Below, piece after piece: positions 19,006 to 60,327 of a stretch of DNA of 64,000 bases; within the stretch, counting starts at the first letter, position 1; each line of letters begins with the position of its first letter. A program made the translations under genes and the position numbers. Source of the stretch: Raja brachyura (lineage: Eukaryota); the NCBI GenBank assembly GCA_963514005.1, contig OY740802.1, positions 28,396,001 through 28,460,000 of the forward strand, read 5' to 3'. The notes below the pieces were generated by a model, which worked only from the letters and a program-made list of their open reading frames with translations, had not been told where the DNA came from and made no database searches.

Positions 19006-19019
19006 GAAAAGCACAAGAT

Positions 19020-25976: not shown

Positions 25977-26199
25977 TATATTGTTTCAGCCACATCTGAT
26001 CATCCAATGTTCCTGCGCAGTGAATGCATTGGGACCAGTTCTAAGAAAGTTCAGTGGACTCAATACCTGGAATGAGCGTGATGTTTGGTGGGAAAGGATT
26101 AACTGGAGCAGGGGCTTGTGTGAGGAGAAGGCGTTTCATCTTGTGGGTGAATCACGAATTAGGGACAGCTGTTTAAAAATAATGCTTGGCCATGTCCTT

Positions 26200-27150
26200 C
26201 ATGTACATTGGCAAGACCAAGTGTTTTTGCCTGACACTTGCGCTCGGTCTGCCAAGACCTGCTCTCTTCCCCATTGCCAACCATTTCAACTCCGCTTCCC
26301 ATTCCCACACTGACCTTTCTGTCCTGGGCCTCCTCCATTGCCAGAGTGAGGCCACACACAAACAGGAGCAACAGCACCTCATATTCTGTTTGGGTAGCCT
26401 ACACCCCAATGGTTGAATTGTCCTATTTTAGGTAACTACAATAGCACCCCCTTCTTTCTCTTCCCTCCCACACCCCCACTCAGCTGTGGCCCACCTGGAC
26501 ACGCACCTCTTTCTCCTCTCCCCCTCCCCTTTGAGCTGCATTCCTTCCTCCAACTTCACAATTCACAACTCTTTAGACTTTAGAAATACAGCATAGAAAC
26601 AGGCCCTTCGGCCCACCGAGTCTGCGCCAACCAGCGGCCACCCCGTACGCTAGTTCTATCCGACACACTAGGGACAACTTAATTTACAGAAGTCAATTAA
26701 CCTACAAACCTGCACGCTTTGGAGTGTGGGAGGAAACCGGAGCACCCAGAGAAAACCCACAAAGTCGCAGGGAGATGGCACAAACTTTTTGCAGACAGCA
26801 CCCAAGGCCAGGATTGAACCCTGGGTCTCTGGCGCTGTAAGGCAGCAACTCTACTGCTGTGCCACTGTTCTGCCCGCATCAATTCTTTGTTTTGCATCTC
26901 TTTTCATCTCTGGCCTTTGTCCAACCATCTGCCTATATACAGAATATTCCTGACCTGTATCCACCTACTGCCTGCAAAGCTTTGTCACGCCCCTCCAACT
27001 TTCTCCTCCCTAACACCTGCTCTCAACCTCCCGCACAATCAGCCTGAAACGTCACCTATCCCTGTTCTCTAGAGATGCTACCTGACCCGCTGCGTTACTC
27101 CAGAACGTTGTGTCTTTTTTTGTAAACCAGCATCTGCAGTTCCTTGTTTC
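26200..27150 (+). mobile_element. Penelope-like retroelement 3' end (degenerate GIY-YIG endonuclease, 3'UTR and terminal repeat), interrupted by an HE1 SINE
   Basis: Translation YIGKTK...PIANHFNSASHSHTDLSVLGLLHCQSEATHKQEQQHLIFCLGSLHPNG is the vertebrate Penelope endonuclease C-terminus. The element ends in the gaaacgtcacc...gagatgctacctgacccgctg terminal repeat. Confidence 0.8.
26573..26876 (-). mobile_element. HE1-like V-SINE inserted in a Penelope 3'UTR
   Basis: Full-length reverse copy. Flanks caactcttt and caattcttt resemble a TSD. Confidence 0.85.
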
Positions 27151-30100
27151 TAGATCCTACCGGGTTTGATTGTCCAGACTTTGGCCTCTCTGGGAATGCT
27201 CAAATGCACGCAAGGCTGCATGATCATCAAACTAATTATGGCAATTGTTCTCTAAATGCATTTGGCTTCCTTGCTGGGGCCAGGACTGCAGTAGTTTTGT
27301 TTAAATTAAGGAGCACAAATGATTGAAAGCCAAAATAAATAGATGTTGTGTGTTGGGAATCAGAAGTTGCTTGGAGTTGGAATGGTTTCTGTCTGAGCAA
27401 TCAGGCTCCCTTCGAGAGGAGGGAAATACACTGGCAAAGCCAGATAGCTTCTCCTTGAACACAGCTTAACATTTGTTTAATTTAATCAAAAGGAATCTGG
27501 TTTTCCTTACCGGAAAAAGGAGCGTTCAGGGCAACCTAGAGCTTGAGAGGATAGACACTAGGAATCTGGCAACATACCTTCTATTATAAAGAGATATTTC
27601 AGATGAATTCAGAAATTCCTTTTTGATGCATCCAAGAGCTTTGAGAAATATTTTGAAGGACAAGAGCCCTAAAGAGACCGTTTAGGGATGGCACAGTGGC
27701 GCAGCGGTAGAGTTGCTGCCGTGCAGCACCAGAGACCCATGTTCGATCCTGACTTTGGGTGCTGTCTGTATGGAGCTTGTACGTTCTCCCCGTGACCGCG
27801 CGGATTTGCCCTGGTTTCCTCAAACATTCCAAAGATGTACAGGCCTGTAGCTTAATTGGCTTTGGTAAAAGATTGTAAATTTCCCCTGGTGCTGGTGTAC
27901 GGGATGATCGCTGGTAGGGGCAGACTTGGTGGGCCGAAGAGCCTGTTTCTGAGATTCTATATCGGAGACCTTTGAATTATGTTTTAATTAACCTTATTTT
28001 ACGATGATGTTATATCTTGCACTTTTTTGCTGTATCTTTATCTTTTATCCGCACACTGTGGATGGCTTGACTGGATAGCATGCAAACAATAGCTTTTCAC
28101 TGAACCTCAGAACATATGACAATCATGAACTAAACTAAACATAGGCATCCGTAAATTTCCCCTAGAGTGTAGGACATAGAACTAGTGTACGGGTGATCGA
28201 TGGACTCCGACGGCCGAAGGGCCAGCTTCCTCGCTGTATCTCAAAACTCTGCAATGTTGGAAGATAAGTTTCTATACTGCCACAGCGATATGTTTCTCTA
28301 CTGCCACAGCTTTGTACTGGTCTAAGTTCATTAGTTATAGGTGCAGAAGTAGACCATTCGGCCCATCAAGTCTCCTCTGCCATTCAATCATGTCTGATCT
28401 AGCTTACCCTCTCAACCCCATTCACCTGCCTTCTCCCAATAACCCCTAATACCCTCAATCTCCGCAATAAGGAAATCAGTTGACTTGGCTTCCACAACCG
28501 TCTGTGGCAATGAACTCTTTGTTTTCAAGAGAGAGTTAGATTTAGCTCTTAGGGCTAACGGAATGAAGTTACTGATTTTGGATGATCAGACATGATCATA
28601 TTGAATGGCGGTGCTGGCTCAAAGTGCCAAATGGCCTACTCCTGCACCTATATTCTATGTCTGTGTAATTCCACAGATTCACCACCCTCTGACTAAAGAC
28701 ATTCCTCTTCATTGCCTCCCATTATTCTGTGGCGGTGCCCTCTGTGTCTTGGACTCTCCCACTAGTGGAAACATCCTCTCTGCATCCACTCTATGCAGGC
28801 CTTTCGTTGTTCGCTAAGTTTCAACGAGATCCCCCCCCCCCCCCCCCCCCCCCATCCTTGTAAACTCCATGTAGTACAAGCCCTGTCCCATCAAGCTGGT
28901 GCTAATCAGGGCTCACCCACCATACGTTAAACCTCTAGACAGGGTTGGAAAGTTTGGCTGGTGGTTGGTTTGTACGCCGGCACAGATGTGGGGCCTGATA
29001 TATGAAGATGAGATTTCTGCCCTGTTTATGGCCGCTTTCAGCTGTAAAGATACATTGTGTGTTCCTGGAAAAGGATAGATTAAACTGGATTATTGAGGCC
29101 TTCCTGCCAACAGTTGTGCACAATAGTGATCATTTGGGTCAAGTGCAGCTGAGCCCATGGGACTGTATTCCAACTAGAGTTGTTGGCATGAAGATCTATC
29201 AACCGTTGTGGAATCAATGGGGGCTTTGGCCCAGAGATTAACTGTTGCCTGAGTGTTTCTTGTAATTTAAGAATAGTGGTAATTCATTCCTCATTCTTCA
29301 GCTGTTTTTCTTTAATTCTTCAAAACAGTTGGTCAGAGATATCTTCTAGCATTGTCGATCATGGAGTCATACAGCTTGGAAACGGGCCCTTCGGCCCAAC
29401 TTGCCATGCTGACCAACATGCCCCATCTACACTACTCCCACCTGCCTGCGTGTGGCACATATCCCTCTTTCAAGAGAGAGTTAGATTTAGCTTTTAGGCC
29501 TAAAGGAATCAAGGGATATGGGGGGAAAAGCTGGAACAGGTTACTGATTTTAGATGATTAGCCATGATCATATTGAATGGTGGTGTTGGCTTGAAGGGCC
29601 GAATGGCCTACTCCTACACCTATTTTTCTATGTTTCTAAACCTATCCTACCATGTACCTGTTTCTTAAAATGTTTTGAAAGTCCCTGCCTCAACTACTTG
29701 CTCCGGCAGCTCGTTCCACATACCAACCATCCTTTGCGTAAAAAGAAAAGTTGCCCTTTGGGCAACGATTAAATCTTTTAGGATAATTTAGGATATTTAA
29801 TCCTATTAAATCTTTCCCCCTCACCTTAAACCTATGTGGTCTGGTTCTCGATTTCCCCTACTCTGAATGCGGACACTTTCTGTCGATTCTGCTTTCTCTC
29901 CCCCTTGCCTTCTCATCCTTTCACCAATACTCCCCACTCGTCTTCACCCACCCAATGGTCAAGATTTACCCGGCAGGTACAATTTTTCTGCTTCCGTTGG
30001 AGAGAAAAATACAATATATATTCGCAGCCCGCACCCAAGCAGCAGGTTTAAAGGTGGTTGTGGCTTGAAACGTTTGGATTTTACGGACAACAATGAAAAT

Positions 30101-36825: not shown

Positions 36826-37347
36826 ACAGTCTGCCCCTTTGGCAAAACAGTTGGGAGTTTAAATGAAAGTTAAAATACTGCTTGATAGAAATGAGTGTGT
36901 GCCTTTCCTTCAAGCAGATAGCAGCACCAGTGGAAGGCTGTTGCATTACACACTGGGCCCCAAGATGATTGCAGCTTGCGTATTCTGGAGTTCTCCTTGA
37001 CCAAATCACCAGGGGTCACCGGGTTTGATGTAGAAACGAGGAACTGAAGATGCTGGATTAATGAAAGGTCGGAATTGGGGTCCCGACCTGAAACATCATC
37101 CATCCGTGTCCTCCAGAGATGCTGCCTGACCCACTGAGTTACTCCAACACTTTGTGTTTTTCACGGAGTCTGACGTGTGCTTTCTGTGTGGGATTGTATG
37201 GGTTAAGTTCACTGAAGCAATATCTATCTGGTGCAATCAGTATAGTGTAGTAATGATATATATTTAAATGAATTGTCCCATTTTTGGTACTTTAACAGCA
37301 GCACAGTGAATGCGTCTTGCTAAAACTTATTTGCTCTTCTTCTGCAG

Positions 37348-38641
37348 AACAAGCTCCACCTGGCAGCCGGCCCCGGGCACCAAGGCATCGATGCTGGTGA
37401 AAGTGGACAGTGGGACGAGCTCGGTTTCCTCGCACGGCTCCGCACCTCAGCCACAGAGCTCCCCATCAGTCTCCGTGCAGAAGGTCCACGTGGCCCAGGC
37501 TCCGGCCCAGCAGGCTGGCTGCGCCCAGCCGGGGGGCAAGGTTCCTTCCCCCCTCGAGGCCAAGCCGTCCCTGCACCTGAAGAAGACAGAGAACGGGGGC
37601 TTCTGCCTGGTGCTGGCGAATGGCCCGGCGCACCAGACCCCCCACAAGACCCAGCCTGGGCAAAGCCAGCCGCTGTCTCCAAGGTGCGCCTCTGGCGCTC
37701 CCATTTACGATGAGCCTCCCATCGAGTCGCCCATCTACGACGAGCCTCCGATGGAGGTGGAGCCGGAGGGAGCATCTCGCGGTAAAGCCGCAGCCCCGAA
37801 GGTGGGCGGACAAGCGGGGCAGAGAGGGCCGGCAAAGCTGCTTCACAACTCGGGCGTCAATAAACACGCCAGGAATCCGTCCACCACTGAGTATAGCCCG
37901 GCAGGGAGAGAGTACATCAAGCAGATGGTCAACATTGACCCGGCCTCCAAACAGGCCTCGTCTCCAAATGGGACGTGCGACAGTGCTGGGAGAGCCCTCG
38001 CCGGTCATCTGTTGGCCAAGGACAGTAACAAGCAGCAGTGGAAGATCCTGGACATGAACTCGCTGAAAAGTAACGAGGTGCACAGCCGGCAGAGCAGCTT
38101 GCAGTCGCACGAGTACCCCACCTCGGTGATCAGCCACCAGGATTCGGGCTACTCCACCGGCCCCTCCCCCAGCCTGCGGAGGAGGAAGGGCAGGAGAACG
38201 GCGGTGGGCCAGGTCCGGCCCGGCTCCCTGGGCAGTAGCAGCGAGCTGAACATCCTGAACGAGAAGCTGATGGCGGAGATGCGGGCGGTGGTGGGCCGGG
38301 CGGTGGAGATCCGGGGCAGCCAGGCCAGCCTGAACGCCGACATCGCCGAGAGCTGCATCCTGGCCGACATCCACAAGATCCGCCTGCAGTCCGAGGGCCG
38401 GCACCTGCGGCAGTACGCCAGCCACGGCTCCAAGGACAACATCGCGGCCAGCACCAGGTCCCTGCACAAACTGGGCGCCGACATCCGGGCCTCGGTCGAC
38501 AGCCAGTTGTCAACCCGACAGGAGGTGGTCCGGCAGAAGAGGACATTTGAGAAGGTGGATTTTTCCAGCAACTCGTTGGAAAGAAGCATCACCAGCCAGA
38601 TTAGCCTTTCTTTACCGAGCCCTGTCCGGAACACGCAGCAG
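37348..38641 (+). CDS. ARHGAP39: ARHGAP39-like RhoGAP, large central exon (low-complexity linker; phase 2 in, phase 0 out)
   Basis: Acceptor ttcttctgcag|A at 37347/8 and donor CAG|gtaaga at 38641/2, inside the 457-aa ORF. Motifs RTSS..MLVKV, PIYDEPP (x2), EYSPAGREYIKQMV and RTFEK match the ARHGAP39 central exon as I recall it. May be a paralog (see findings). Confidence 0.9.
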
Positions 38642-40275
38642 GTAAGAACTGTAGAAACAAGGACCTGCAGATGTAAAAAATAAAGACACAAACTGCAGGA
38701 GTAAACAACAGATCGACACAAAAAGCTGGAGTAACTCAGCGGGACAGGCAGCATCTCTGGAGAGAAAGAATGGGTGACGTTTTGGGTCGAGATTTTGGGT
38801 TGATCTATCTTTCCCTCTCAATCCCACCCTCCTGCCTTCTCCCCATACACCCTGACACCTTTACCAATCAAGAATCTGTGAATCTCCGCCTTAAAGATTA
38901 CCCAATGACCTGGCCTCCACAGCCGTCTGTGGCAATGAATTCAACAGATTCACCACCCTTTGACAAGAAATTCGTCCTCATCTCCTTTCTAAAGGTGTGT
39001 CCTTTGATTCTGAGGCTGTGCCCTCAGGTCCTAGATTCTCCACGTGGAAACATCCTCTCCACATCCACTCTAACCAAGCCTTTCCCTATTCAGTAAGTTT
39101 CAATGAGGTCTCCCCTCAACCTTCAAAACTCCAGCGAGTACAGGCCCAGTGCCATCAAATGCTCTTAATCTTTAAGTAAACTCTATATTCTGTTTTCCTT
39201 TAATTCCCTGCTCACTGGCCCGTACTCTCAGACCTCCAACCAAGAGAGATTGATTGTAAGACTCCTAAAAATAGTACCGAGGGTGAATCAGAAGCCAAGA
39301 CACAAGGACCTGCGAGCAGGCATTGGTCATTTAGATATTCACTGTGGAAAGCAAAAAAAGGGGTGGTCTTGATCCCAATAGCCTTGGAGAGTTCCCAACG
39401 GAGGAATAATTTCCTCTGGGCATTTCTGTGGGCCAATTAGTCAGGCATGGGAATGGGAGAGATCAATGCATTCCCAGCTGCTGGAGCCTGCCAGCGTTTG
39501 AGGGGGAATGTGCAGCGATTGATGGGCTTGAAATGGGTGAGCAGATACGCAGAATTCCTCAGAATAATGTGGACTGTTTTGTTTAAAATCGTAAAAACTG
39601 CAAATCTCCGTCCTAATTATGTTGACAAGAGCAGCATGAACTGAATTAAATTCAAAAGGAACGTGGTTTAGAATGTTTTTCCCGTGCCAAATTTGCGGTT
39701 TCTTCATGCGTTTGATTGTGGTGACTGATTTCACGTCTCTTTCAGGTGATGCTGGGGTGGGGGGGGGGGGGGGAGGGGAGCGGTGGTGAGAGAGAAGAAA
39801 GAGAGGACATTGGGTTAGGGCAGAGGATTTTGAGGAGAGGTTAGGGCAAAGTGTCCTTACACAGTGTGAGTTTGTAATATGCAATTGTCTATCGCAAACT
39901 CAAACATTTAGTTTCTCAGCTTACTAATGGAGGCACAAAGTGCTGGGGTAGCTCAGCGGGTCAGGCAGCATCTCTGGAGAACGTGGATGGGCGACGTATC
40001 GGGTCGGGACCCGTCCTTCCTGTGCCTTGTGATTTGTACAGTTTTCAACTGAGCCAATCTAGAATAAATGAGTGTCTATTAATATTTATATGTAGATACA
40101 AGGAGCTGCAGTTGCTGGTTTTACAAAAAAGACACAAAGTGCTGGAGTAACTCAGCGGGTCAGGCAGCATCTGTGGAGGACGATAGCCATACGAGCCCTT
40201 TTGTCAGAGAAGATCAGGTGTTGATTTGGGGGAATAAAAACTCATGCCAGCCCCGTGAATGTAGAGGCCAATTGT

Positions 40276-40303
40276 CTGAAGAAGGGTCTCGACCCGAAAC
40301 GTC
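40276..40303 (+). ncRNA. Minimal hammerhead-ribozyme-like motif in a Penelope-derived terminal repeat
   Basis: CTGAAGA-A-GGGTC-TC-GACCC-GAAA-CG-TC: conserved CUGANGA and GAAA boxes, a perfect stem II, a palindromic ACGT minimal helix III and a GUC triplet. Confidence 0.6.
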
Positions 40304-41425
40304 GCCCATTCCTTCTCTCCAGAGATGCTGCCTGTCCCGCTGAGTTACTCCAGCTTTTTGTGTCTATCTTCGGCCATTTAGAGAGATTGGCGCGCTCAGG
40401 GTTGGCTGCGGGGGGCACCCCGGGGGCATGAAGGTTGAAGGAGGGAGATGGCGCTTCGAGTGATGACCAGATGGAGGCGATGACTGCCACAGACCCTTGT
40501 TACCAGCTGCGGCTACACCCAAACCTGGAGACTCTTGCACATAGACTCAGTGGGCTATTTCTTGCATTATGTGCAAGATAACTGGGTACTGTACCAATGT
40601 ATGGTGGCGGTAGAGTTGCTGCCTTACACAGTCCCTGGTTCAATCCTGACTGTGGGTACTGTCTGTACATAGTTTGTACATTCCCCCCGTGACCACATGG
40701 GTTTGTAGGTTAATTGGCTTTGTTAAAATTGTAAATTGTCCCTAGTGTGCGGAATAATGCTGGTGTACAGGGTGATCGCTGGTCGGTGTGGACTCGGTGT
40801 GCTGAAGGGCCTATTTCCGCGCAGTATCTTTGAACTAAACTAATCTAAACTATGGCAATGATCTCACTGATCAGGACCTTGGCTGAATACCAGAGATTGA
40901 AACATGAATCAAAATTAACAGTCTGAATGGCCCAGGCCACATCATAAAGACATGAGGACTCTTTGTCTGTCCTACGGTTCAACCGAATCAAGGCCGACCT
41001 GCATCACAAGCCCGCTTTCTATGCCAGTCCCCATATCCCTTGGTTGGCATCCAATAGTTTAGTTTAAGTGGGAGATCAGGACTGAATCTGGGTGTCCTGC
41101 GCTGCGAGGCAGCAGCACTAACATCTTCCCCATGAGCCACCGATTCTTAAAAGTGAACAGGTACTGCATGCCGATGAACAAATGCGATTGGTTAGTGGTC
41201 CGTGTAAAATACTGGCATTCATTGCAAACTGTGGCCAACAAGTGTTATCAGTTTGACTTAGTTTATTCTAAAGATAGTTGCGTGCTATGCAGTCAGCGAT
41301 TAAAACTATACATGATTACACATAAGCTATCCACGTGTGCAGATGCGGGATAAAGAGAATAACGTCAGTGCAAGGTAAAGTCTGATAAAAGGGAGTCGGA
41401 GGGACCACAATGAGGTAGATGGGAG

Positions 41426-41720
41426 TGTTTAAGAAGGAACTGCAGACGCTGGAAAATCAAAGGTAGACAAAAATGCTGGAGAAACTCAGTGGGAGAGGGG
41501 GGTGGAAGATTGCAACCTTCACGTGGTCCGCCCTGTTTCGACTAATGTAATCAACTCGACATGCACAAGCAGAAGATCAAATAGAGGTGGCCACACGAAA
41601 GAAGAAGAAGAAACGGGTGCAGCAGCATCTATGGAGCAAAGGAAATAGGCAACGTTTCGGGCCGAGACCCTTCTGAAGAAGACTGAAGAAGGGTTTCGGC
41701 CCGAAACGTTGCCTATTTCC
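41426..41720. mobile_element. Penelope-derived inverted-repeat element with 14-bp TSD
   Basis: gaggtagatgggag at 41412-41425 and 41721-41734. Internal inverted hammerhead-like motif at about 41650-41712. Confidence 0.8.
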
Positions 41721-41927
41721 GAGGTAGATGGGAGGTTAGGACTGCTCTCCAGTTAGTGATAGGGTGGTTCAGTTGCTTGACAACAGATGGGAAGAAACTC
41801 CCTGAATTCGAGGTGTACAAATTCACACAATTCATACCTCTAGCCTGAGGGGAGAAGCGGGAGTGACCAGGGTGAGACCAGTCCTTGATTATGCTGGTGA
41901 CCTTGCCGAGGCAGCTTGGAGTTTAGA

Positions 41928-42622
41928 TCATAATCATCATCATCATCATAATCATACTGTATTAGCCAAGTATGTTTTGCAACATATGAGGAATTTGATT
42001 TGCCATAGAGTCATACCAATAAAAAGTAACTAAACACACAAAATACATTTTAACATGAACATCCACCACAGCAACTCCTCCACATTCCTCACTGTGATGG
42101 AGGGCGAGAAAAAAAGTTCAATCTCTTCCCTTCTTTGGGGGCCTCGAGCCTTCAGTTGACGGGACAATCTCAGCTCTGCCGCGCCGGGCGATCGGACCCA
42201 GGGTCGGGGCCAGTCGAACCTCTTGCGGCTGTGGAGCTTCCTGACATTGGTGTCTGCCCGAGACTGCGAGCTCCTCGATGGTGAAATCCGCAGGCTGTAT
42301 TTGGAGCGTCGATCCCAGGCAAGGTATCGCAGGCTCCGATGGTGATTCCATGGCCCCGCGGTGGGGCTCAAAGTCAGTCTCGAGCAAGGCTGCCAGCTCC
42401 ATGATGTTAGGCCGCAGAGCGACCGGAGATACGATCCGGAATACAATCGCAAGGTAAGAGATTGAGAAAAAGGTTTTTCCCGGACCCCCTCCCACATCCC
42501 CCACATAAAACAAACCAGAGAACATTAACACATACTTTTTAAAACACACTAAAAATAACAAAAAAGACGAAAAGACAGACAGACCATTGGCGAGGCTGCC
42601 ATGGCTGACGGCGCCACCCGGT
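41928..42622 (-). mobile_element. Non-autonomous GC-rich retroposon with (GAT)n tail inserted in a Rex/Babar fragment
   Basis: (atc)n run at 41928-41953. The host sequence ...gagtttagat|ggagtcgatggaagg... is rejoined across the insert. No coding homology seen. Confidence 0.6.
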
Positions 42623-43859
42623 GGATGGAGTCGATGGAAGGGAGGTTGGTTTTGTGTGATGGTCTGGGCAACATCCACAACTGTCTGCAATTTCTTGTGG
42701 TCTTAGATGGACAATTCCCTAACCGTGCTGTGATGTATCCCGATAAAATGCTTTCTACGGCGCATCTGTAGAAGTTGGAGAGAGTTGTTGGGGATCAGAA
42801 CAATACGGCACAGAAACGGGCCCTTCGGCCCACGATGTTTGTGCCAGACATGATGTCAAGTTAGACTGATCTCATCCGATTGTACATGATGCATGTCCCT
42901 CTATTCCCTACACTTCCATGCACCCTATACAATAACCAATCAATAACCCCCGGCAGTGAAACCCCAAGGTATGCAAGCCTCTGAGAAAAACAACTTCTCC
43001 CCATCTTCATCCTAAATGATGCTGGGATTATGCTCCTGTTTTTCTTATCCATCCACTCAGAATCTTGTACATCTCAAGCACAGAGAGGGAAAGAGAGAAA
43101 ATGCTTTAATTATCTTAACTGTATTGAGTACAGGATGTGTGGTAAATTCAGCATCTAACAATATTAATCCCTCAGCCAACAGCCCTGAACGATGATTATC
43201 TGGTAATTAATATAATTGCATTGTGTGGGAGCCTACGATGTACATTTTATCAGGCGAGGGGATTGAGGTACAGAGTTGAGGTACAGCATATTTGACGGAG
43301 CAGGCTTGAGGGGCTGAATAGCCACCACTGTTCCCACGTTGTGTCTGTATTGTTTGTTTTGTTGCTGATTGTGCAGCGGTGGAGTCGCTGATTCACAGTG
43401 CCAGGATCGATCCTGACTACAGGTGCTGTCTGTACGGAGTTTGTACGTTCTCCCTGTGACCATGTGGGTTTTCTCTGGGTGCTCCGGCTTCCTCCCACAC
43501 TCCAAAGACATGCAGGTTTGTAGGGTAATGGGCTTCTGTGAATTGGCCCAAGTCTGTGGGATGGAACTAGTGTACAAGTGTGGTCGCTGGCCGGTGCGGA
43601 CTCGGTGGGCCGAAGTGTCCGTTTCCATGTTGCATCTTTAAACGAAAAACTAAACTAAATTTGTAAAGTGTCAAATTATTCCTTGTGGGTAGGATAGTGC
43701 TGGTGTAACAGCTGATCACTGGTTAGTGTGGACTCGACGGGCGGAAGGGACTGTTTCTGCGCTGTATCTCTAAAGTCTAAAGTTTAAATGTATGGAATAG
43801 TCAAGACTTGGTTAATTCAGCCCTGCTAATATTAATGCAAGCGTTTATGTGTTCCATGA

Positions 43860-44462
<603 letters not shown>

Positions 44463-45819
44463 TGAGCATGCAATCTTCCTTTTTTTTATTTTTTAAAGAT
44501 GATTATTTGAATTTAGGGCAGCACGGTGGTGCATCCGGTACAGCCACTGCCTCACGGCACCAGAGACCGGAACCCGGATTCGATCTTGACCTTGGGTGCC
44601 ATCTGTGTAGGGTTTGAACTTGGTGATATGGTTTCCTCCCACTCCCCAAAGATGTGCGGGTCACAGATTAATTGGCCCTCTGTAAAATTCGCCCCCCTCC
44701 CCAGTGTGTAGGAAGTGGATGAGAAAGTGGGTAACATAGTTTTAACATTATACGTTTAGAGATACAATGCAGAAACAGGCCCTTTGACTCACCGAAGCTA
44801 GACACAAAGAGCTGGAGTGGCTCAGAGTGACAGGCAGCAGCTCTGGAGAGGAGGAATGGGTGACGTTTTGGGTCTTGACCTGAAACGTCACCCATGCCTT
44901 CTCTCCAGAGCTGCTGTCTGTCCCGCTGAGTTACTCCAGCTTTTTGAGTCTATCTTCAGTTTAAACCAGCATCTGCAGTTCCTTCTTACACCTTTGATTC
45001 ACTGAGTCAGTGCTGGCCATCGATCCCCGTGCACTAGCACTATCCAACACGCTTGTGACAAGTTACAATTTTTACCGAATTTTAACCTACAAACTTGTCG
45101 ATACATCTTTGGAGTGTGGGAGGAAACCAGAGCACCTGGAGAAAACGCATGTGGTCACGGGGATAACGTACAAACTCCACACAGACAGTGCCAGTAGTAA
45201 GGATCGAACCCGGATCTCAGGCCCGTACCTGTATGGCAGCAACTCCACCGTTGCGCCACCGTGAGTGAAAGATGATCAATGGTCGGCATGGACTCAATAG
45301 ACCGAAGGGCCTCTTTCCATGCTATATCTCTGAACCAAACTAAATTAAAAATTAAGCATTTCTTTACTTTTAATGTGGGTATGGTCTGATTGAATTTTGA
45401 TTGAAAGATTAAGCATGGAAACAGCCCCTTCAGCCTATCCAGTCCTGGCCAGCCATCGGTCACCTGTTCACACTGGCTGCATGTAATCCCACTTTCTCAT
45501 CCACTCCCTACACCCTGGGGATAATTTACAGAGGCCAAACTAACCTACAAACCTGCAAGTCTTTGGGATGTAAAGTGTGTCCCTGTTGCGTAACTAGTTC
45601 AAAGGATTTATGATGTGAATGTGGCTTTGCCACTGATTTTCTTTTTACCAAGAGTGTGTTGGCATGGCAACGGGCTGAATGAAGGCTCACAAGTCACCCC
45701 AGGATCGTGCAATCTGGGTTTAATAACAGAGAAGGTAGTTAGCCTGCGTGACACTCCGTTAGACAAAGAGCACCTCTCCTTCATGGTTAGAAAGCACGAT
45801 GCAGTGCTGGCATACGTTC

Positions 45820-46890
45820 ATGAGTTCTAGGAGCAGAAATAGGCCATTCGGCCCATCTAGTTACTCTGCCATTTAATCATGGCTGATCTATCTTTTCCTC
45901 TCGACCCCATTTTGCAGCCTTCTCCCCATCCACAGTGTACAGATACAGGATAAAGTTCATTCGTTCAGAAGTTCTTAAGATCGAGGAGTAGAATTAGGTC
46001 ATTCGGCCCACCCAGTCTACTCCCACATTCAATCATGGCTGATCTACCTTCCCCTCTCAACCCCATTCTCCTGCCTTCTCCCCATAACTCCTGGCACCCG
46101 TACTAATCAAGAACCTGTCAATCTCTGCCTTAAAAATATCCATTGACTTGGCCTCCACAGCCGTCTGTGGCAATGAATTCCACAGATTCACCAATCTGAC
46201 TCGAGAAATTCCTCCTCATCTCCTTTCTAAAGGAACATCCTTTTATCCTGCGGCTCTGCCCTCTGGTCCTAGACTGCCGCACTAGTGGATACATTCTTTC
46301 CACATCCACTCTATTCAGGTGTAAATATTCCTCCATTTGAAGTTGTTCTATCATTGTTTATTCATGGTTGATCTACATTGTAACTCCATCCACCTTTCCT
46401 GGTTCCTAAAACCATATGTCCCATATCCCTCTAACTCTTTCCTCTCCATGTACCTGTCCAAGTGTATTCTATATGTTGTTATAGAACAACACCTCAACTA
46501 CCTCCTTTGGCAGCTCCTTTCATTTGCCCACCACGTCCTGAGTGAAAATGTGGCCCCTCGGGTTTCCGTTAAATCTTTCTCCTCTCACTTTAAACCTGTG
46601 ACCTCTGGTTTTTGATTCCCCTACTCTGGATAAAAGACTGGATATTCAACCCTCTCTATTCCCCTCATGTTTTTATATATCTCTATAAGATCACTCCTGA
46701 TCCTCCTGTGCTCCAAGGTATAAAGCCCTAGCCTGCATGCATTATCTGTCTGCTGACCGGTTAGCACGCAACAAAAGCTTTTCAATGTGACAATGAACTG
46801 AACTAAAACTAAACTGCCCAACCTCTCCCGATAGCTCAGGTCCTCGAATCCAGGCAACATCCTTGTGAATATTCTCTGCGCTTTTTCCAG
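45820..46890 (-). mobile_element. Cluster of CR1-clade 3' fragments
   Basis: Reverse frames give RMYPLVRQSRTRGQS and LPGFEDLSYRERLGSL...GLYTLEHRRIRSDLIEIYK. Confidence 0.8.
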
Positions 46891-47108
46891 CTTATAACAA
46901 GGTGACCTGTGTAATATGAGGCCTAAACCTCTCGCATTGTTTTAAAAAAAAACAATTCATTAAATCCATGAGGGATGATGATTTGTCATCCTTTTATCTG
47001 GTTTGGTCTGAGCATGATTTCAGATCCACTATAATGTAGCTGATTGTTAATCTTTCTCCAAGGTGACCCAGCAATCTGCATTCTAGGAGAAGGTAGAATG
47101 TTTTAAAC

Positions 47109-47457
47109 CAGGGGTGAGGAACCCTTTCATGTTGGAATGTCGCATTGTTAACTATCATCTAATAAGGCCGCACCCAAGAAACTTCAATTAGACATTTCAA
47201 AATGTACATTATTTTATTAAAATACCCCTCAAGACTTACTAATGTTTTAATTGTGGCCGTCAGTCGGGGAGGATTATTTAGTTTAATCTTCTTTTACTCT
47301 TTGGTATTTTAAATATGTTCATTTTAAGATTAAAATAAAAATAATAAAAGACGAACAAAAACATATTAATAATAATAAAAAGAGTTGTTGTACAAAATTT
47401 GGATTCATTCAAAAGGCCGCACTTAATGGTCTTAAGGCCGCAGGTTCCCCACCCCTG
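47109..47457. mobile_element. hAT (Charlie-like) MITE
   Basis: TIRs caggggtgaggaacc and ggttccccacccctg (14/15 match). 8-bp TSD ttttaaac/ctttaaac. AT-rich non-coding interior. Confidence 0.85.
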
Positions 47458-48844
47458 CTTTAAACAATGACAGAGATAGAGTTATACCAAGTAAGGTAGG
47501 GCAATGTCCAATACACCTCAACCCCTTTGCAGGCTTGGACTTTGTTTATGGAGCTGATGTGCTACAATGCTGAGAACGATATCCTGCACTCTGTAACCCT
47601 CTCCTTCACTCTACCTACTTACTGTACTAGAGTTTGGCTTGATTGTGAAGATAGACACAAAAAGCTGGAGTAACTCAGCGGGACAGGCAGCATCTCTGGT
47701 GTCGAGACCCTTCCTCAGACTGGCGTGATTGTATTGTAGACATGCCAGGGTACTAGCCGATTCACCTCGACCTCATTGCCGACGTTGGCCTTTGTCTCTG
47801 GAACTGATGCGCTACAATGCTGAGAACTATATTCTGTGTCTTTTCCGCTTGCTCTATATATTGCACTTCAAATGTATTATATATAGTATCATATTGGATA
47901 GTACACAAAACAAAGCTTTTCACCCGACACATGACAATAGTAATGTTTTACTGTTATTACAATACTAAACCTAAACTTGCAAACTAGCTTTTCGGCCAAA
48001 CTCGGACTGAGGTCTCCATTAGAGCTAATCCCACGTACCTGCATTTGGCCCGTATCTCTCGAAACTTCCGATCCACATAGTTGTCCAAATATGTTGTAAG
48101 TGGATCCTCTCTGCCTGCTTGTTCCATTAACGCTCTACTCTCTGTGTGGAAAGTGGTGCCCCTCAGCTACCCAATAAATCTTTCCACTCTCACCTGGGGG
48201 GGGGGAAGACTGACCATTCACCTTATCTATGGCCCTCCCGACATGAATACCTCTATAATGTCACCTCCCTGGTCCACCTGTCACCATATAACACAAACCT
48301 TCTAGTCCTGGTAACACCCTTGTGAATCCTCTCTGCACCCGTACCAGCTCAATTACATCAATGCCCAGATTCCATGAACAAATATATATTTTTTATAAAC
48401 CAGTGCATCATGAACTCTTTCTATCCACCTTTGCCTCATTCAATACAATAGAATAACAAATAGTTTATCCACCGATAGACACAAAGTGCTGGAGCTACTC
48501 AGCGGGTCAAGCAGCATCTCTGGAGAAAATGGATGGGTGACGATTGGGGTCAAAACCCTGCTTCAGACTCTCTTCCATTCTCTGTCACACGTCCCTTTTC
48601 TCCAAAGACGCTGCCTGACCCGCTGAGTCACTCCAGCACTCTGTATCTATCTTTGGGATCTATTTATTTATTTAATTCTTTATTTCGAACAGAATAAAAA
48701 GCAAGTGTGAAACAGCATACAAAAAACAAAACAAGAACATTTATAAATGTCATAAACAGTATCTATAAATAAATTAAATCGTATTGTGTCCAAAAAGGTA
48801 GAAGCCAAACCTTACTAATTCCCACCCCTTATTCAACTGCTTAT

Positions 48845-49231
48845 AACCATATAACCATATAACAATTACAGCACGGAAACAGGCCATCTCGGCCCTTCAA
48901 GTCCGTGCCGAACAACTTTTTTCCCTTAGTCCCACCTGCCTGCACTCATACCATAACCCTCCATACCCTTCTCATCCATATGCCTATCCAATTTATTTTT
49001 AAATGATACCAACGAACCTGCCGCCACCACTTCCACTGGAAGCTCATTCCACACCGCTACCACTCTCTGAGTAAAGAAGTTCCCCCTCATGTTACCCCTA
49101 AACCTCTGTCCCTTAATTCTAAAGTCATGTCCTCTTGTTTGAATCTTCCCTATTCTCAAAGGGAAAAGCTTGTCCACATTAACTCTGTCTATCCCTCTCA
49201 TCATTTTAAAGACCTCTATCAAGTCCCCCCC
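48845..49231 (-). mobile_element. CR1-clade LINE 3' fragment with (TTATATGG)n tail and cttataa TSD
   Basis: LIEVFKMMRGIDRVNVDKLFP...FFTQRVVAVWNELP. cttataa occurs at 48840 and 49232. Confidence 0.85.
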
Positions 49232-49522
49232 CTTATAATTATCTTATACAAATTTAGCAGCTATATGTACACCATATGTACACCAACAGCTATATATTTA
49301 CATTTATACACTAATCAAATATTTACAAAGCCATACAAAAAAAGAGAGAAAAAGAAAAAGCCCTGATATACTACACAGTATCTCTTAGTCATATATACAA
49401 CCCACCACCCTATAACCACCATTCCCAATACAATCAGTATAACAAATATCCCACTATAAACCAGCATCTGCAGTTCCTACCTACACATCACTATAATGTC
49501 GTCCCTTATTGTTAAATTCCAG

Positions 49523-49615
49523 TAACCCAACGTATCAATGAACTAATGGAAATGAAAAATAAGAAGTTCTCAAAGTCAAGGAAGAAGAGGAAACAGAATA
49601 TCGAGGAGGAAGAGG
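49523..49615 (+). CDS. ARHGAP39: ARHGAP39-like 93-nt symmetric (phase 1-1) exon, basic insert in MyTH4
   Basis: Acceptor aattccag|TA and donor GAGG|gtaagt. Reads (I)TQRINELMEMKNKKFSKSRKKRKQNIEEEE(D), resembling the 31-aa alternative exon of ARHGAP39 (VTQHIKELLE...). Not in the ORF track. Confidence 0.88.
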
Positions 49616-51128
49616 GTAAGTTCTGAGTGGGTTTGATGCGCTGCCACTCGTTTATTCCATCACAGGATGTGTACATCATTGGCAAAGCATGTTGTACTTC
49701 CCTGGTTCATTTACTGCAGTCAGAGACTTTTTTTCCAGGGTATAAATGTTAAAGACTAGAAGGCATAGCGATAGGGTGAGAGGGGCAAAGCTTAAATAAT
49801 CACACAGGGCAGATTTGCCCTTTAGAGGGAGGGTATAGGGTGGTGGGGACCTGGAACGTACTGCTGATGGTAGATGCACATCCAGTAAGGAAACTGTAGA
49901 GGCTTTTAGATGGGCACGTGAATATGTAGGGAATGGCGCAATATGGATCATATGCAGGCCGAGGATTTTAGTGCAACTTGACATCAGGTTCAACACGGTC
50001 ACTGTGGGCCGAAGGGCCTGTTCCCGTGCTGTACTGTTCTGCGTTCTTGCATGACTGCAATCTAAACTTATCTAAATAATTCAATCTAAGGTTGAAGCAA
50101 TGGTAATGTAGCCAGGTAGAGAGAGAGAGTATGGAAACAGGCCCTTCGCCCACTGAGTCTAAGCTGACCAAGTACCCATTCTAACATCAATCCAACCCGA
50201 ACCCATTTTATCTTGCCTACATATCCATCAACTTCTCGCTAGATTCCACCTCTCATCTTTACACTCGGGAATTTACAGCGGCAAATTAACCAGACCGGCC
50301 CGGCTGCAGAATCTGTGGAATACGTTGCCACTGTTGACTGTGGGGGACAAGTCATTGCAGAGATGGATAGGTTCTTGATTAGTTAGAGCGTCAAATGTTA
50401 CAGGGAGAAGGCAGGAGAATGAGGTTGAGAGGGAAAAATAGACCAGCAGTGGTTGAATGGTGGAGCATACTCGATGGGCCGAATGGACGCTATATCACCT
50501 CAAAACACTTGCCTCTTATCAGCTCCTTCGCTGATCGAGCCTCCTCCCAGCACAGCCCTATGCTGTGACATTCCTCCTTCAACCTCATTGAAACGTACAG
50601 AATAATGAAAGGCTTGGATAGAATGGATGTGGAGAGGATGTTTCCACTCGTGGGAGAGTCTGGGACTAGAAGTCATAGCCTCAGAATTAAAGGACGTTCT
50701 TTCAGGAAGAAGATGAGGAGGAATTTCTTTACAGACAGAGGATGGTGAATCTGTGGAATTCTTTGCCACAGAAGGCTGTGGAGGCTGTCAGTTAATATAT
50801 TTAAGGCAGAGATTGATAGATTCTTGATTAGAACGGGTGTTAGAGGTAATGGGGAGAAGGCAGAAGAATAGAGTTAGGAGGGAGAGATAGATCAGCCATG
50901 ATTGAATGGTGGAGTAGACTTGATGGGCTGAATGGCCTAATTCTGCTCCGAGCACTTGTGATCTTATGAAAATTGTTTCTTCCGCCTTTGATCAGCCATG
51001 ATTGAATTGCGGAGTAGACTGGATGGGCTGAATGGCCTAATTCTGCATGTTTTTATTATTGGATTGAACCAACTCTGCTGGAGCTGTGGGGCAGTGGCTC
51101 TGTTTCCTGCACCACCATGCTCTCTATA

Positions 51129-51812
51129 ATAGAAACATAGAAACATAGAAAAATAAGTGCAGGAGTAGGCCATTCGGCCCTTCGAGCCTGCACCGCCATT
51201 CAATGTGATCATGGCTGATCATCCAACTCAGTATCCCGTACCTGCCTTCTCTCCATACCCCCTGATCCCTTTAGCCACAAGTGCCACATCTAACGCCCTC
51301 TTAAATATAGCCAATGAACTGGCCTCAACTACCTTCTGTGGCAGAGAATTCCAGAGACCCACCACTCTCTGTGTAAAGAATGTTTTCCTCATCTCGGTCC
51401 TAAAGGAATTCCCCCTTATCCTTAGGCTGTGACCCCTTGTTCTGGACTCCCCCAACATCGGGAACAATCTTCCAGCATCTAGCTTGTCCAACCCCTTAAG
51501 AATTTTGTAAGTTTCTATAAGATCCCCCCTCAATCTTCTAAATTCCAGCGAGTACAAGCCGAGTCTATCCACTCTTTCTTCATGTGAAAGTCCTGACATC
51601 CCAGGAATCAGTCTGGTGAATCTTCTCTGTACCCCCTCTATGGCAAGGATGTGCTTCCTCAGATTTGGAGACCAAAACTGTACGCAATACTCCAGGTGTG
51701 GCCTCACCAAAACCCTGTACAACTGCAGTAGAACCTCCCTGCTCCTATGCTCAAATCCTTTCGCTATGAATGCTAACATACCATTTGCTTTCTTCACTGC
51801 CTGCTGCACCAC
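51129..51812 (-). mobile_element. CR1-clade (HER1-like) LINE, 5'-truncated, RT C-terminus with open 194-aa frame
   Basis: KKANGMLAFI...LYRVLVRPHLEYCVQFWSP...QRRFTRLIPG...RRLRGDLIETYKI...FFTQRVVGLWNSLP. Ends in a (TTTCTATG)n tail at about 51130. Confidence 0.95.
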
Positions 51813-52928
51813 ATAATGTTTGATTTATTTTGTCATTGGTCCAATTAGGACTGTGGAAAATAGTTTTATATTTTCGACCATCTCAGTGGGTATTGAAAGT
51901 TGTGTATTTCGAGTGCAGAGTCTCAGTGGGAAACGTTTAAATTGTTATTGGATGCACTGTTAACCAACAGGAAAACTTCATTCTTAATCTTGGAAAGTGC
52001 TTTTAAACATTATGTATAAATGGACTGTCAAACCTATAGTAAAATTGGTTGCATGGCGTTAACAAGTCTGACTCTAGACTTTAGGCATTAGAGATACAGC
52101 GTGGAAACAGGCCCTTCGGCCCACCAAGTTCGCACCAACCAGCGATCTCCCCGTATACTAACAATATCCTACACATTAGGGACATCTTACACATTTACTG
52201 AAGCCAATTAAGGTAGAAACCTGTGTGTCTGGAGTGTGGGAGGAAACCGGAGCACCCGGAGAAAACCCACGAGGTCACATGGAGAAACTCCATACAGACA
52301 GCGCCCATAGTCAGGTTTGAACTTGGGTCTCTGACGCTTTAATGCAGCAACTCTGCTGCTGAACCACCGTGCTGTTGCAAGAATGCTGTGTCATTGATAC
52401 ACATTAATGATATTTTTTCCAAATCTTCTCTTTTAAGTGTTGGCTACAAAAAGAGGTGGGAGAGCAAGCGCTTAACATTTCCCTGTTTTTCCTCCTGTCT
52501 TGTCGAGCAGAAATTGGTAGCTGGGACTTGTGTGTGAGCTTTCATCATATACTTACTACCTTCTCCTTCATGTCTTACAAGAGGTCAAAGTTATTCAGCA
52601 AGAAAACAGGCCCTTCAGCCCACTGTGTCTGTGCTGGCCACAGTCCATTACTTGGCCTGTCCCCTTCTATTCTCCAGCATTTTGCATGCGGATCCAAGTC
52701 ATTCTTAAATGTTGTGAGAGTCTCCACATCCACCTCCCCCTCGGCTCAGTGTTCCAGGTCTCAAGCACTATTTAGGTGAAAACAATATCTCCTTCACAAT
52801 TGGCACCGGCTCTCTGGCGGAGGGGCTTGTTTCCATTCTAAACCACTCCCTGATCAGCGCAAGGTCTTCTGCATTGCTAAAAACATGCATGCTAATTGTT
52901 TTTTGTTTATTGCCTCACTCTTCTTTAG

Positions 52929-53002
52929 ATCTACTTATCAGCACGTATGCAAAATATTGTTATCGCAAGCTTCAGAAGGTTGCAGTGACCGGAGGAAAGA
53001 AG
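52929..53002 (+). CDS. ARHGAP39: ARHGAP39-like exon, end of MyTH4 (74 nt, phase 1 to 0)
   Basis: Acceptor ttctttag|AT and donor AAG|gtacaa. Reads (D)LLISTYAKYCYRKLQKVAVTGGKK. Confidence 0.93.
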
Positions 53003-53863
53003 GTACAAATTGTGTGTGTTCGCTCTCCAAATGGACATGTGTTTGACACATTCTTAGTGCCTGTTGCCTTGCGTATATTGGCTTTACCCTCAAAAGGACA
53101 CAAAGTGCTGGAGTAACTAACTCATAGAGGGCCAGGCAGCATCTCTGGAGAAGGTGGAGAGGTGACGTTTTCGGGTCGGGGCTGATTCTTCGGATTGATT
53201 GCAAGTGGGGTGGTGGAGGAAGGAAGCTGGGAGAGAGGAGAGGCGGGACAAAGTGTTGTGGGTCATCGGTGGGCATAAGCGAGGGGGGGTCTGTTGATAG
53301 GCAGATGGTGGAAACGAAGGCCAGAGATTGGAGCAGGTGCGATCTGTTGCGTCATGTGCGTTACGGACAGATTGAAGAGATGCGATTTGTGAAGCCAGAG
53401 GAAGGAATGTAGGAGGTCGGCCACACTAGCTCTATCCTACACACTAGGGACAACTTACAGAAGCCAATTAACCCACAAACCTGTACGTCTTTGCAACGTG
53501 GGAAGAATCTGGAGCACCCGGAGGAAACCCACAGGGAGAACGTACAAACTCCATACAGACAGCACCCGAGGTTAGAATCGAACCCGAGGCAGCAACTCTA
53601 CCTCTGCGCCACTGTGCCGTCCACGGGGCTTCATTAGCTACTTTTCACCATGAATCAAAAGTGTGAACATGAGTAGGCAACATGAATTGAGTAGGCAATA
53701 TATGCCAGTGAATGAGCAAGTTAGACTGTGCATTGAGTTGGGTCGTGCTTACAGAGAGGCGAATCACAACCGTCTCGTGTGATTTTAAGCCAGTGGTGCC
53801 ACCTCTGCTGACTGTCCCTTTGCCACATAACGATGCAGTTGTGTGTGAGCTGGACTGAAATAA

Positions 53864-54082
<219 letters not shown>

Positions 54083-54098
54083 TAAGGCCGTGCGTGGG

Positions 54099-54590
54099 AA
54101 TGAATGAATGAATGAATGAATGAAGACGTTATTGTCACGTGACAAGTCACAGTGGAATTCTTTGCTTGCCTACCTTGCCATGGTATGCAATAGTCGCCGA
54201 TGAAGGGCGCTTACGAAGTTAAAAATTACGCCCCCCCCCCCCCCCCGCGCCAGTTCCCCCTTCCCCCTCCCGCACGGCGGTCCCCCCCACACTGAGTTCT
54301 CCTTTGTTCCTTCCCTCGGCAGCGACGTCCTTGCTTCACGTGTCTGTCTCGTCCGTTATCGGTCTGCGCTGTCATTGACCGCCGCACTGACCTCTCCACA
54401 ACATTGCCGAGTCCTCTCCTGAATCCTCCTGAACCCGGGCCCCAGCTGCGGGTCCCATCGGCTGCTCTGACCAACCTGAGCTTCTCCGTGGCCGTCCAGG
54501 AGGCGTTGAGACCGCAGTTCCTCGATAAAGGCCCCTGGCCGCATTCCAAGTCCGCGGCCATGACGCCCGGCGAGAGGCCTTCTGCGTGGA
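54099..54590 (-). mobile_element. GC-rich non-autonomous retroposon with (TTCA)n tail
   Basis: (tgaa)n run followed by ttattgtcacgtgac, the same 3'-end motif seen on other LINE tails here, then a CpG-rich body. Confidence 0.5.
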
Positions 54591-55659
54591 TGTGTTGTGC
54601 TTAAAAAAAATCACTCTCCTTGGGAGGGTCTACGTGGAAATGACCGCCAATGTATTCAGTAGAAGCAAGGAATTACAGATGCTGGTTTACACAAAAGGAC
54701 GCAAAGTACTGGAGTAACTCAACGGGTCAGTCAGCATCTCTGGAGAACATGGATAAGTGGCATTTTCATTAGTTCATCATTTATAAGAGCAGAATTTGGC
54801 CATTCGGCCCATCAAGTCTACTCCTCCATTCAATCATGGCTGATCTATCCACTCATGTTGTGCCGAGCAGCAAGCAGCCCGTACACTAGTTCTATCCGAC
54901 ACACTGGGGACACTTTAACCCACAAACCTGTACATCTTTGCAGTGTGGGAAGAATCCAGAGTACCCGGAGAAAACCCACGCAGTCACAGAGAGATCGTAT
55001 AAACTCCGTACAGACAGCACCCGAGGTCAGGATCGATCCCGGGTCTCTGGTGCTGTAAGGCAGCAACTCTACTGCTGCACCACCGTGCCGCCCAAAATCC
55101 CAAAGCTGCTCAAAATTCCAGCAACTTCAATCCTGTGTCTTCGGCTCGTTAACATCTCTTCTCTGCTCCCCACCCAACGCCCAGTCGCATCAAAGGAGAT
55201 GAGGTTGGAAATGCTAGGAGAGAATGGTAACTGCAGCTGGCCACTCCACTGTTGTGCTTCTGTACATGACGCGGGGTCGCCTGGCAGTCTCGCCTGTTGT
55301 TTTGGTTGGGAAAAGGACGGCGTGCCCTCGCAACTTCCTGCACGAGCTGCGATGAAATTTCCAACTAGGACGTCTAATTTTAGCTCTTAGTGACCTGGGA
55401 CAGGAAGCCGAGCAAATGTCTTCAAATCTCGAATACCATTCAGCGTACGTAAACTCAGGGTTGGGAACGGTGTTGCAGAGTTTTTCAGCAGTCTTTTTTG
55501 GTGCGTTAATACAAACTCTGTACAGACAGCGCCCGTAGTCAGGGTCCAACCCAGGTCCCTGGCGGTGCGAGGCAGCAACTCTACCACTGCACCACTGGCA
55601 AGGTCCCACTGCAAAGATGCACGACGGTCTCTAAGGAGCAGTTGCAGTGAATCTCATTG

Positions 55660-56288
55660 ATTAGTTTAGTTTAGAGATACAGCATGGAAACAGGGCGATC
55701 GGCCCACCATGTCCGCGCCAACCATCGTGGCTCGGTGTCTCAGCAGTAGAGTTGCTGCCTTACAGCGCCAGAGACCTGGGTTCAATCCTGACTGCGGGTG
55801 CTGTCTGTACGGAGTTTATACGTTCTCCCTGTGACCTGCGTCCGTTTCCTCCAGATTCTCCAGTTTCCTCCCACACTCCAATGATGTACAGGTTTGTAGG
55901 TTAATTGGCTTTGGTAAGATCGTAAATTGTCCCTGGCGTGTGTAGGATAGTGTCAGGGTACGGGGATCGCTGGTCGGCATGGACACGGTGGGCTGAAGGG
56001 CCTGTTTCCGTGCTGTATCTCTGAATTAAACTAAACTAAACCTGTTCACACTCGTTCTATGTTATCCCACTTTCTCATCCATTCCCTCCACACTATAGGG
56101 CAATTTTTACAGAAGGCCAATTAACCTATAAACCTGCCCGTGTTTGGGATGTGGGAGGAAACCTGATCACCCGGAGGAAACCCACGAGTTCATAGGGAGA
56201 AGGTACAAACCCCACACAGACAGCACCCAAAGTCAGGATCGAACCTGGGTGTGAGGCAGAGACTCTACCAACTGCGCCTGCGCCGCCC
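55660..56288. mobile_element. Nested SINEs: + strand HE1 copy (about 55728-56040) inserted in a - strand copy
   Basis: The reverse copy's tail (55660-55725) resumes at 56041 after a complete forward copy. Confidence 0.75.
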
Positions 56289-56334
56289 ATATTAATGATA
56301 ATATTATCTCCTGTAAGACCTTCAAACAGCTTGG

Positions 56335-56640
56335 TGCCTGTTGTCCTGGGCCCCCCTCCACTGCCAGAGAAAGCAAACGGGAGGAACAGCACCTCCTACT
56401 TTGCTTGGGTAGCTTACAACCCAACTGTATGAACATTGAATTTTCCAATATTAATAACTAACCAGTAACAACCCTCTCCCCTTTCCCCCGTCCCTTCCAC
56501 CGATATCCTTTCCTCCGGCCTCACATTTTGCCCTTCTTTCCTTCCTTATCTCACAGCCGTTTGTTATCTTCCCATCTCTGGTCTTTGTCAACCCATCTGC
56601 CATTCAAACCCCATGCACCTTTATCCACCTATCACCCCCT
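56335..56640 (+). mobile_element. Penelope-like GIY-YIG C-terminal fragment and 3'UTR
   Basis: gtcctgggcc...gaggaacagcacctcctactttgcttgggtagcttacaaccc is homologous to 26320-26430. Confidence 0.7.
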
Positions 56641-57569: not shown

Positions 57570-57719
<150 letters not shown>

Positions 57720-57954
57720 TAGTGTGGAACATGCTGAAGAAAGGTCCCGACCCAAATCCTCATCTGTCTATTTCCTTCCACTGATGCTGAGTCCCTTCGG
57801 CAGTTTGTTCTTTGCTCTAAACTCCAGCATCTGCTGTCTTTTGTGTGCCTATAATTTGGAACAGTCTCAAAGGGCTGAATGACAGACCTGCGCCTGTCCC
57901 CATGTTTCCCACAAAGCCATGACTTAAATTGTACACAAGCGCGCACGCACGCAC

Positions 57955-59209: not shown

Positions 59210-59605
<396 letters not shown>

Positions 59606-59991: not shown

Positions 59992-60327
<336 letters not shown>

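Follow-up and report, generated by a model that had tools for sequence, protein, structure and literature searches.

Penelope-like elements (PLEs) of metazoans carry minimal type I hammerhead ribozymes in their terminal repeats. The features listed for these motifs include the conserved core boxes, an inserted base, a G10.1-C11.1 pair and a palindrome at positions 15.2-16.2 (Cervera and De la Pena 2014, PMC4209133). In the same account the monomers are inactive and the dimers weak, copies are mostly solitary genome-wide, with 4,000-9,000 motifs per genome cited, and the intron of Drosophila virilis Penelope ends just before the hammerhead core. The role of these hammerheads is stated as unclear in the description of Neptune-type, endonuclease-bearing (EN+) PLEs by Craig et al. 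(2021, PMC8557442), which gives a CX2-5CxxC linker as the mark of Neptune and Nematis elements, and 5' truncation, an inverted truncated copy and an optional tail of 30-40 bp as PLE hallmarks.

Three further descriptions bear on how such copies arise. The Poseidon PLE of Anolis mainly uses RNA that has not been cut, its ribozyme requires the element's protein for cleavage, and its tail is the stretch between two internal starts of reverse transcription (Frangieh et al. 2024, PMC11167929). In Penelope itself the promoter and the start site lie within the terminal repeat, and transcription of the fly element starts well upstream of the motif (PMC2377424). Finally, non-LTR retrozymes are short, non-coding, PLE-derived units that bear hammerheads and stand in head-to-tail arrays with a motif in each unit; the sample described includes one cartilaginous fish (Li, Clavereau and Pollet, bioRxiv 10.64898/2026.07.22.740005).

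We analysed 64,000 nucleotides from the skate Raja brachyura (hereafter the window), in which an initial annotation had placed a hammerhead-like motif at 40276-40303 (CTGAAGA-A-GGGTC-TC-GACCC-GAAA-CG-TC), with sense and antisense copies at 19 other sites. The motif is present exactly as given, and the focal copy and all 19 other sites belong to one repeat family. We consider it likely that these short, often head-to-head repeats are the 5'-truncated 3' ends of a Neptune-type PLE; they were probably made from uncut RNA, and are probably inert. The intronic motifs would thus be passengers of a known class of retroelement rather than switches of the host gene, ARHGAP39, which removes a tempting false lead.

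A search of the 64-kb window for CTGANGA-N4-30-GAAA gives 17 matches where 5.3 are expected, and at least 17 were reached in none of 100 shuffles; ten of the matches are distinct family copies, one is an overlapping duplicate and six are unrelated. BLAST of the window with 40270-40372 as query returns 51 matches. A family profile seeded with 18 copies from the window finds 56, and none in the reversed window; its matches cover 5,849 bases (9.1% of the window), so the very high abundance reported earlier is real. The repeat unit consists of the hammerhead motif, an arm of about 65-70 nt and an optional tail of about 35 nt, which 25 of the 56 profile matches possess, and several subfamilies can be distinguished at diagnostic columns. 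The whole motif is spanned by 27 of the 56 copies and its core is unchanged in nine of these, six sense and three antisense. Only the focal copy among the 27 combines an intact core, a 5/5 stem II with G-C closure, the CG palindrome and the 2-bp helix I. At about 0.4 motif-spanning copies per kb, the density in the window is far above what the genome-wide numbers cited in PMC4209133 represent. One supplement of that paper that was searched does not name skate or shark, and the literature on cartilaginous fish yielded no paper naming this repeat family, for which a Repbase or Dfam entry is quite possible. The abundant skate repeat is a member of the class described in 2014. Coordinates of the main features are collected in Table 1.

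Table 1. Features of the repeat family and its host gene, in window coordinates.
Feature	Positions	Strand	Remarks
Focal PLE stub: minimal hammerhead and ~70-nt 3' arm, without tail	40274..40372	+	
Hammerhead motif	40276..40303	+	C3-A9 40276-40282; inserted A 40283; stem II 40284-40295
Hammerhead motif, second half	40296..40303	+	G12-A15.1 40296-40299; ACGU palindrome 40299-40302; C17 40303
Predicted cut site of focal motif	40303/40304	+	
Focal helix I	40274-40275 with 40304-40305	+	these pairs only
Head-to-head partner arm of focal copy	40092..40178	-	~35-nt tail, no hammerhead
Antisense copy	39921..40019	-	predicted to pair with focal stem II, GAAA and cut site in + strand pre-mRNA
PLE ORF 3' end, broken	26183..26413	+	GIY-YIG endonuclease, YIG to C-terminal end
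Longest copy: 3' UTR, arm, tail	26414..27154	+	first core box deleted near 27043
SINE-like repeat nested inside longest copy	26572-26868		
Second ORF-end and UTR remnant	56342..56635	+	matches both flanks of nested SINE
Third, short GIY-YIG C-terminal remnant	19491..19550	-	adjoins head-to-head pair 19015-19474
Sense stub, core intact	8712..8821	+	one stem II mismatch
Sense stub, core intact	13155..13278	+	partial tail
Near-perfect head-to-head pair, arms 97% alike	41614..41719	both	sense motif at 41683: intact core, without helix I
Head-to-head pair, centre in loop II	1106..1332		
Head-to-head pair, centre in loop II	44790..44990		one arm with tail
Longer copy: pyrimidine-rich UTR ending CAG, intact core, arm, tail	61377..61590	-	
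Host gene ARHGAP39, seven coding exons	37340..60324	+	focal copy in intron 38648-43904

The earlier assignment to the Penelope-like kind of hammerhead stands: the motif is a minimal type I hammerhead whose core, inserted base and palindrome all match. The consensus is intact in the type I order, with CUGANGA followed by GAAA..UH. The base inserted between A9 and 10.1 is A in 26 of 30 copies; this extra A had been entered as a caveat, but it is conserved in PLE hammerheads and described as such (PMC4209133). Among the 27 spanning copies, the 10.1-11.1 pair is G-C in 12 and G-U in 5, and the vestigial, palindromic helix III is CG in 15, giving ACGU. The location in a PLE terminal repeat and the mostly solitary copies genome-wide are further likenesses to the 2014 description. 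The skate motif departs from the norm of PMC4209133 in a helix I of only 2 bp, as in the D. virilis variant and below the 4-5 bp of Schistosoma, beside a helix II of 4-5 bp, and also in that there is no covariation among the window copies.

The likeness could in principle be accidental, arising in a repeat unconnected with ribozymes. An Rfam scan of the window, hammerhead families included, has no match at the gathering score, covariation is lacking, and folding z-scores range from -0.95 to +1.01 in all seven sequences (7/7). We strongly disfavour chance all the same and give it next to no weight, as the published PLE pattern is matched by every core letter, by the inserted base, by G10.1-C11.1 and by the palindrome, and the motif lies where it is expected, 3' of a GIY-YIG ORF.

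Evidence for that ORF comes from the longest copy, which extends upstream into a GIY-YIG endonuclease remnant at 26183-26413, with a broken reading frame. ORF ends occur three times in the window (26183-26413, 56342-56635 and 19491-19550), and the second of these bridges the nested SINE-like repeat and so independently supports the continuity of the longest copy. The first core box is deleted in the sole copy that connects ORF and arm, so the link between ORF and hammerhead relies on homology in the UTR, where the longest copy is 67-68% identical to copies in which this box is intact (19022-19244, 61384-61585). The upstream UTR, a pyrimidine-rich region, is retained to varying lengths in 13 of 55 copies. 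Since these 13 copies reach the UTR and one reaches the end of a GIY-YIG ORF, 5'-truncated PLE ends explain the set.

The protein remnants of the repeat match skate proteins. A search with a single window fragment matched only one mis-annotated skate protein, and the 48-aa fragment drew nothing useful from Pfam or the ESM Atlas. A profile built from 26270-26413, two more window fragments and one stored fragment was then compared with 618 candidate proteins, giving 24 matches, mostly 57-79% identical. Pfam GIY-YIG was matched in 6 of the 13 profile matches scanned, above the curated cut-off in only one. P0012, a 457-aa protein from Hypanus, aligns to 26183-26413 with 46% identity (E 4e-15); its relatives of 750-950 aa have GIY-YIG in 6/6 and RVT_1 in 5/6 of those scanned, and its ESM Atlas neighbours agree with PLE identity. 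A PDB search with P0012 gave no match. The CX2-5CxxC linker is found in all eight relatives examined (8/8), while the window copies lack the part of the protein that holds it. Pieces of this PLE's endonuclease occur in batoid gene models named SAC2-like, DIPK1C, myocardin and DCC (P0001, P0012, P0019 and P0021), as either exonised fragments or annotation errors.

With their C-terminal GIY-YIG domain, the linker in relatives, truncation, an inverted 5' copy and a tail of 30-40 bp, the skate copies resemble the Neptune-type EN+ PLEs of Craig et al. (PMC8557442). They differ from the elements described there in that the window holds no reverse-transcriptase remnant and no full-length element, and the clade is set by the linker motif.

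The initial annotation had proposed instead a separate, non-autonomous, ribozyme-bearing family. In its present form, this would make the stubs products of separate non-autonomous masters of about 100-140 nt, mobilised in trans by PLE protein, and truncation would play no part. A sharp common 5' end, the very high density and the subfamilies at diagnostic columns all suit such masters, and hammerhead-bearing non-autonomous PLE derivatives have been described (bioRxiv 10.64898/2026.07.22.740005). What tells against them is that the copies that do reach upstream (13/55) vary in length and that the ORF end recurs three times; furthermore, internal initiation of reverse transcription near the 5' end of the RNA is enough by itself to give short copies (PMC11167929). 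Head-to-tail tandem units with two complete motifs were found in none of the 21 close pairs. A separate family of this kind is unlikely in our judgement. Non-LTR retrozymes are a related candidate, similar in being short, non-coding, hammerhead-bearing and derived from PLEs. The window copies differ from them in being solo or head-to-head, unlike the published head-to-tail arrays (bioRxiv 10.64898/2026.07.22.740005), and consecutive complete hammerheads in head-to-tail order again number 0/21.

Returning to truncated PLE ends, both ends of the copies are informative. At the 5' side, 14 of 55 copies begin within the 8 columns that precede C3 (p=1.5e-7 if truncation were uniform), a hot spot that may be sharpened by profile seeds that often began near it, although the upstream letters were checked by eye. 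Another 8/55 begin in stem II and 1/55 at the cut site. The sequences upstream of short copies are mutually unrelated. The depth of public contigs is 1.1 million where the core begins and about 0.08 million in the query copy's UTR. At C3 each run has some 2,000 loose ends, with AT-rich flanks in low agreement. The drop and the loose-end figures are both inflated by mismatch to the query copy and by subfamily-specific UTRs, and a summed depth does not measure copy number. The top-ranking joints, at 40274, are the query copy's own start and were left unused. Four sequencing runs over 39700-42100 contained no contig crossing the insertion. At the 3' side, ends fall into two clusters, with 22/54 at columns 240-259, before the tail, and 21/54 at columns 275-285, after it.

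Because copies start before the core and contain both sides of the cut site, they were likely made from uncut RNA, and the 5' ends suggest uncut templates. Most simply, the 5' end of many templates would lie a little ahead of the core, and reverse transcription would set out from within the RNA and run to that end. The two 3' end points after the hammerhead, with the tail between them, and the apparent origin from uncut RNA are both likenesses to Anolis Poseidon (PMC11167929). The differences from that element are that the relatives found here have a linker of Neptune/Nematis type and that no ORF start at stem II was identified.

Neighbouring copies are joined in a characteristic way. Within 150 bp, 12 of 21 neighbours are head-to-head, compared with a permutation mean of 5.3 (p=0.0002), and the arms of head-to-head pairs resemble each other more closely than other pairs do (0.82 vs 0.75). 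The tail is on exactly one arm in 6 of 12 pairs, which is chance level. The two pairs centred in loop II, 1106-1332 and 44790-44990, suggest fold-back at the stem II hairpin; in the former the arms are most alike near the centre. A non-autonomous DNA transposon (MITE) was also considered and fits poorly, as fixed terminal inverted repeats are absent, arm lengths vary and many copies are solo. At 917-1332, two head-to-head insertions meet at 1106, where one seems to have entered the end of its neighbour, an arrangement that suggests insertion into earlier copies.

Fold-back raises a second explanation for the 5' hot spot. The copies would still be PLE ends, but the hot spot would reflect fold-back or stalling of the cDNA at the core-start palindrome and stem II, or else a sequence resembling a 3' splice site, rather than the start of the RNA. 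The loop II-centred pairs, several junctions that stop at the core start and the eight copies beginning in stem II all speak for fold-back or stalling, whereas many hot-spot copies are solo with unrelated flanks, and paired arms often differ in length and subfamily. As for a splice-site-like effect, long copies have a pyrimidine tract and CAG directly before helix I, where the D. virilis Penelope intron also ends (PMC4209133), but hot-spot copies have no upstream exon in common. We regard this explanation as a real possibility, if not the favoured one. The 3' splice-site-like arrangement, with CAG one base before the core, can be seen at 61506-61550, 7761-7805 and 12329-12345, all on the minus strand.

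In the favoured reading of the copies as truncated PLE ends, and by analogy with Anolis Poseidon, the PLE protein would nick DNA and start reverse transcription inside the RNA, at either of two sites 3' of the hammerhead, and the choice between these two starts would yield copies without or with a tail. Many template RNAs may begin 2-8 nt ahead of C3, which would be why most cDNAs end there, and long copies would derive from RNA that reads through. If the ribozyme works at all, it would do so only in the RNA of the element itself, as a dimer formed through ACGU with help from protein; dispersed intronic copies would have no partner, mostly misfold and decay. A more specific account is tentative, and on present evidence rather doubtful: the stubs of about 100-140 bp would be full run-off products of the PLE transcript's 5' end, with transcription from a few bases ahead of the core and internal reverse transcription from about 95 or about 130 nt downstream, and two such cDNAs would often be joined head-to-head. 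It would be a further step to suppose that helix I needs splicing at the adjacent CAG, or the PLE protein, to become complete. If the run-off account is true, the skate genome holds a very large natural record of PLE integration. The sharp 5' and 3' end points, together with the very high copy number, make both the choice between cut and uncut template and the position of the RNA start testable.

Whether the motif still matters within the host gene can be judged from its conservation. Outside CpG, the core has changed at 13/206 positions (6.3%) and the arm at 83/962 (8.6%; p=0.33), a comparison of low power over 22 copies that were picked for spanning the motif, with a trend slightly favouring the core; against all non-CpG arm columns, diagnostic ones included, the figures are 6.3% and 102/1006 (10.1%; p=0.09). 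The catalytic G12 is A in 11 of 39 window copies, and the CpG formed by C11.1 and G12 is altered in 13 of 39 cells. By depth in the contigs of two public runs, G12>A stands at 10.7% and 10.1%, compared with 13.3% and 12.3% at arm CpG. The catalytic G12 decays like a neutral CpG. In these contigs, an excess of C>T over G>A at two hammerhead CpGs (~22% vs 11%, 19% vs 8%) was considered as a sign of selection in source elements; this was rejected because mismatches of the query copy fall on the C positions concerned, and no such excess exists in the window (8 vs 11, 5 vs 9).

Stem II does vary between copies, as had been noted, but the changes are not compensatory and are mostly CpG decay. In 22 rows, which leave out 5 of the 27 spanning copies that have deletions through the motif, two-sided change affects 1 of 9 stem pairs compared with 2.5 in shuffles, the rows being decayed insertions from few subfamilies. 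Stem II is missing from the RNAalifold consensus, and none of 10 pairs shows covariation. Of the motif-spanning copies, 14 are sense and 13 antisense, so the sense orientation is not depleted.

Folding predictions point the same way, for programs that ignore help from protein, dimers in the cell and co-transcriptional folding: the focal copy has P(stem II) and P(helix I) of 0.00 in 4/4 contexts, and the highest value for any of the six intact sense copies is 0.37, in a single context of 41683. The focal monomer in a hammerhead-like fold is predicted at -4.0 kcal/mol, with the minimum free energy (MFE) at -8.6 kcal/mol. An antisense copy about 300 nt upstream is 84% complementary to the focal copy over 85 nt, with predicted pairing that covers 40285-40310. 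In several copies the core and the 5' side of stem II (40276-40322 in the focal copy) are predicted to pair with the downstream pyrimidine stretch and CAGA. Such pairing is possibly a built-in inactive fold, one that covariation does not support.

These results bear on the earlier suggestion that intact sense copies act as intronic ribozymes, cutting or tuning ARHGAP39 pre-mRNA. The focal copy keeps all core letters, two of the intact sense copies lie between coding exons, and ACGU permits a dimer, with a predicted duplex of -3.1 kcal/mol. Dimers of PLE hammerheads were reportedly the subject of a 2017 study by Lunse et al. Published monomers are, however, inactive and dimers weak (PMC4209133), the Anolis motif requires PLE protein (PMC11167929), and no cleavage was seen in 8 of 9 Xenopus dimers (bioRxiv 10.64898/2026.07.22.740005). 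Added to the less stable monomer fold, the predicted pairing with the antisense copy, and a lack of both strand bias and covariation, this makes a ribozyme acting on the host RNA very improbable. The suggestion is not upheld in the window copies, where any advantage in conservation of the non-CpG core over the arm falls short of significance; cutting of ARHGAP39 RNA is unlikely and the motif is probably idle.

The gene in the window is ARHGAP39, whose best named relatives are from rays and sawfish (92-95%). Between its coding exons lie three sense motif-spanning copies (two intact) and four antisense ones. The description of the motif as occurring throughout the gene's introns thus applies for 38648-60324; for 1-37340 it applies only by inference, because the WW exons are absent from the window, and copies past 60324 are beyond the last coding exon. 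Three runs of N (6595-6730, 24360-24490 and 57955-58106) are assembly gaps or masked stretches. On the minus strand, 51228-51824 is a 197-aa open frame that has no Pfam match and presumably resembles the 3' end of a CR1-type LINE ORF. The repeat of about 300 nt nested at 26572-26868, which we take to be a SINE, belongs to a family with dozens of other sites in the window, on both strands.
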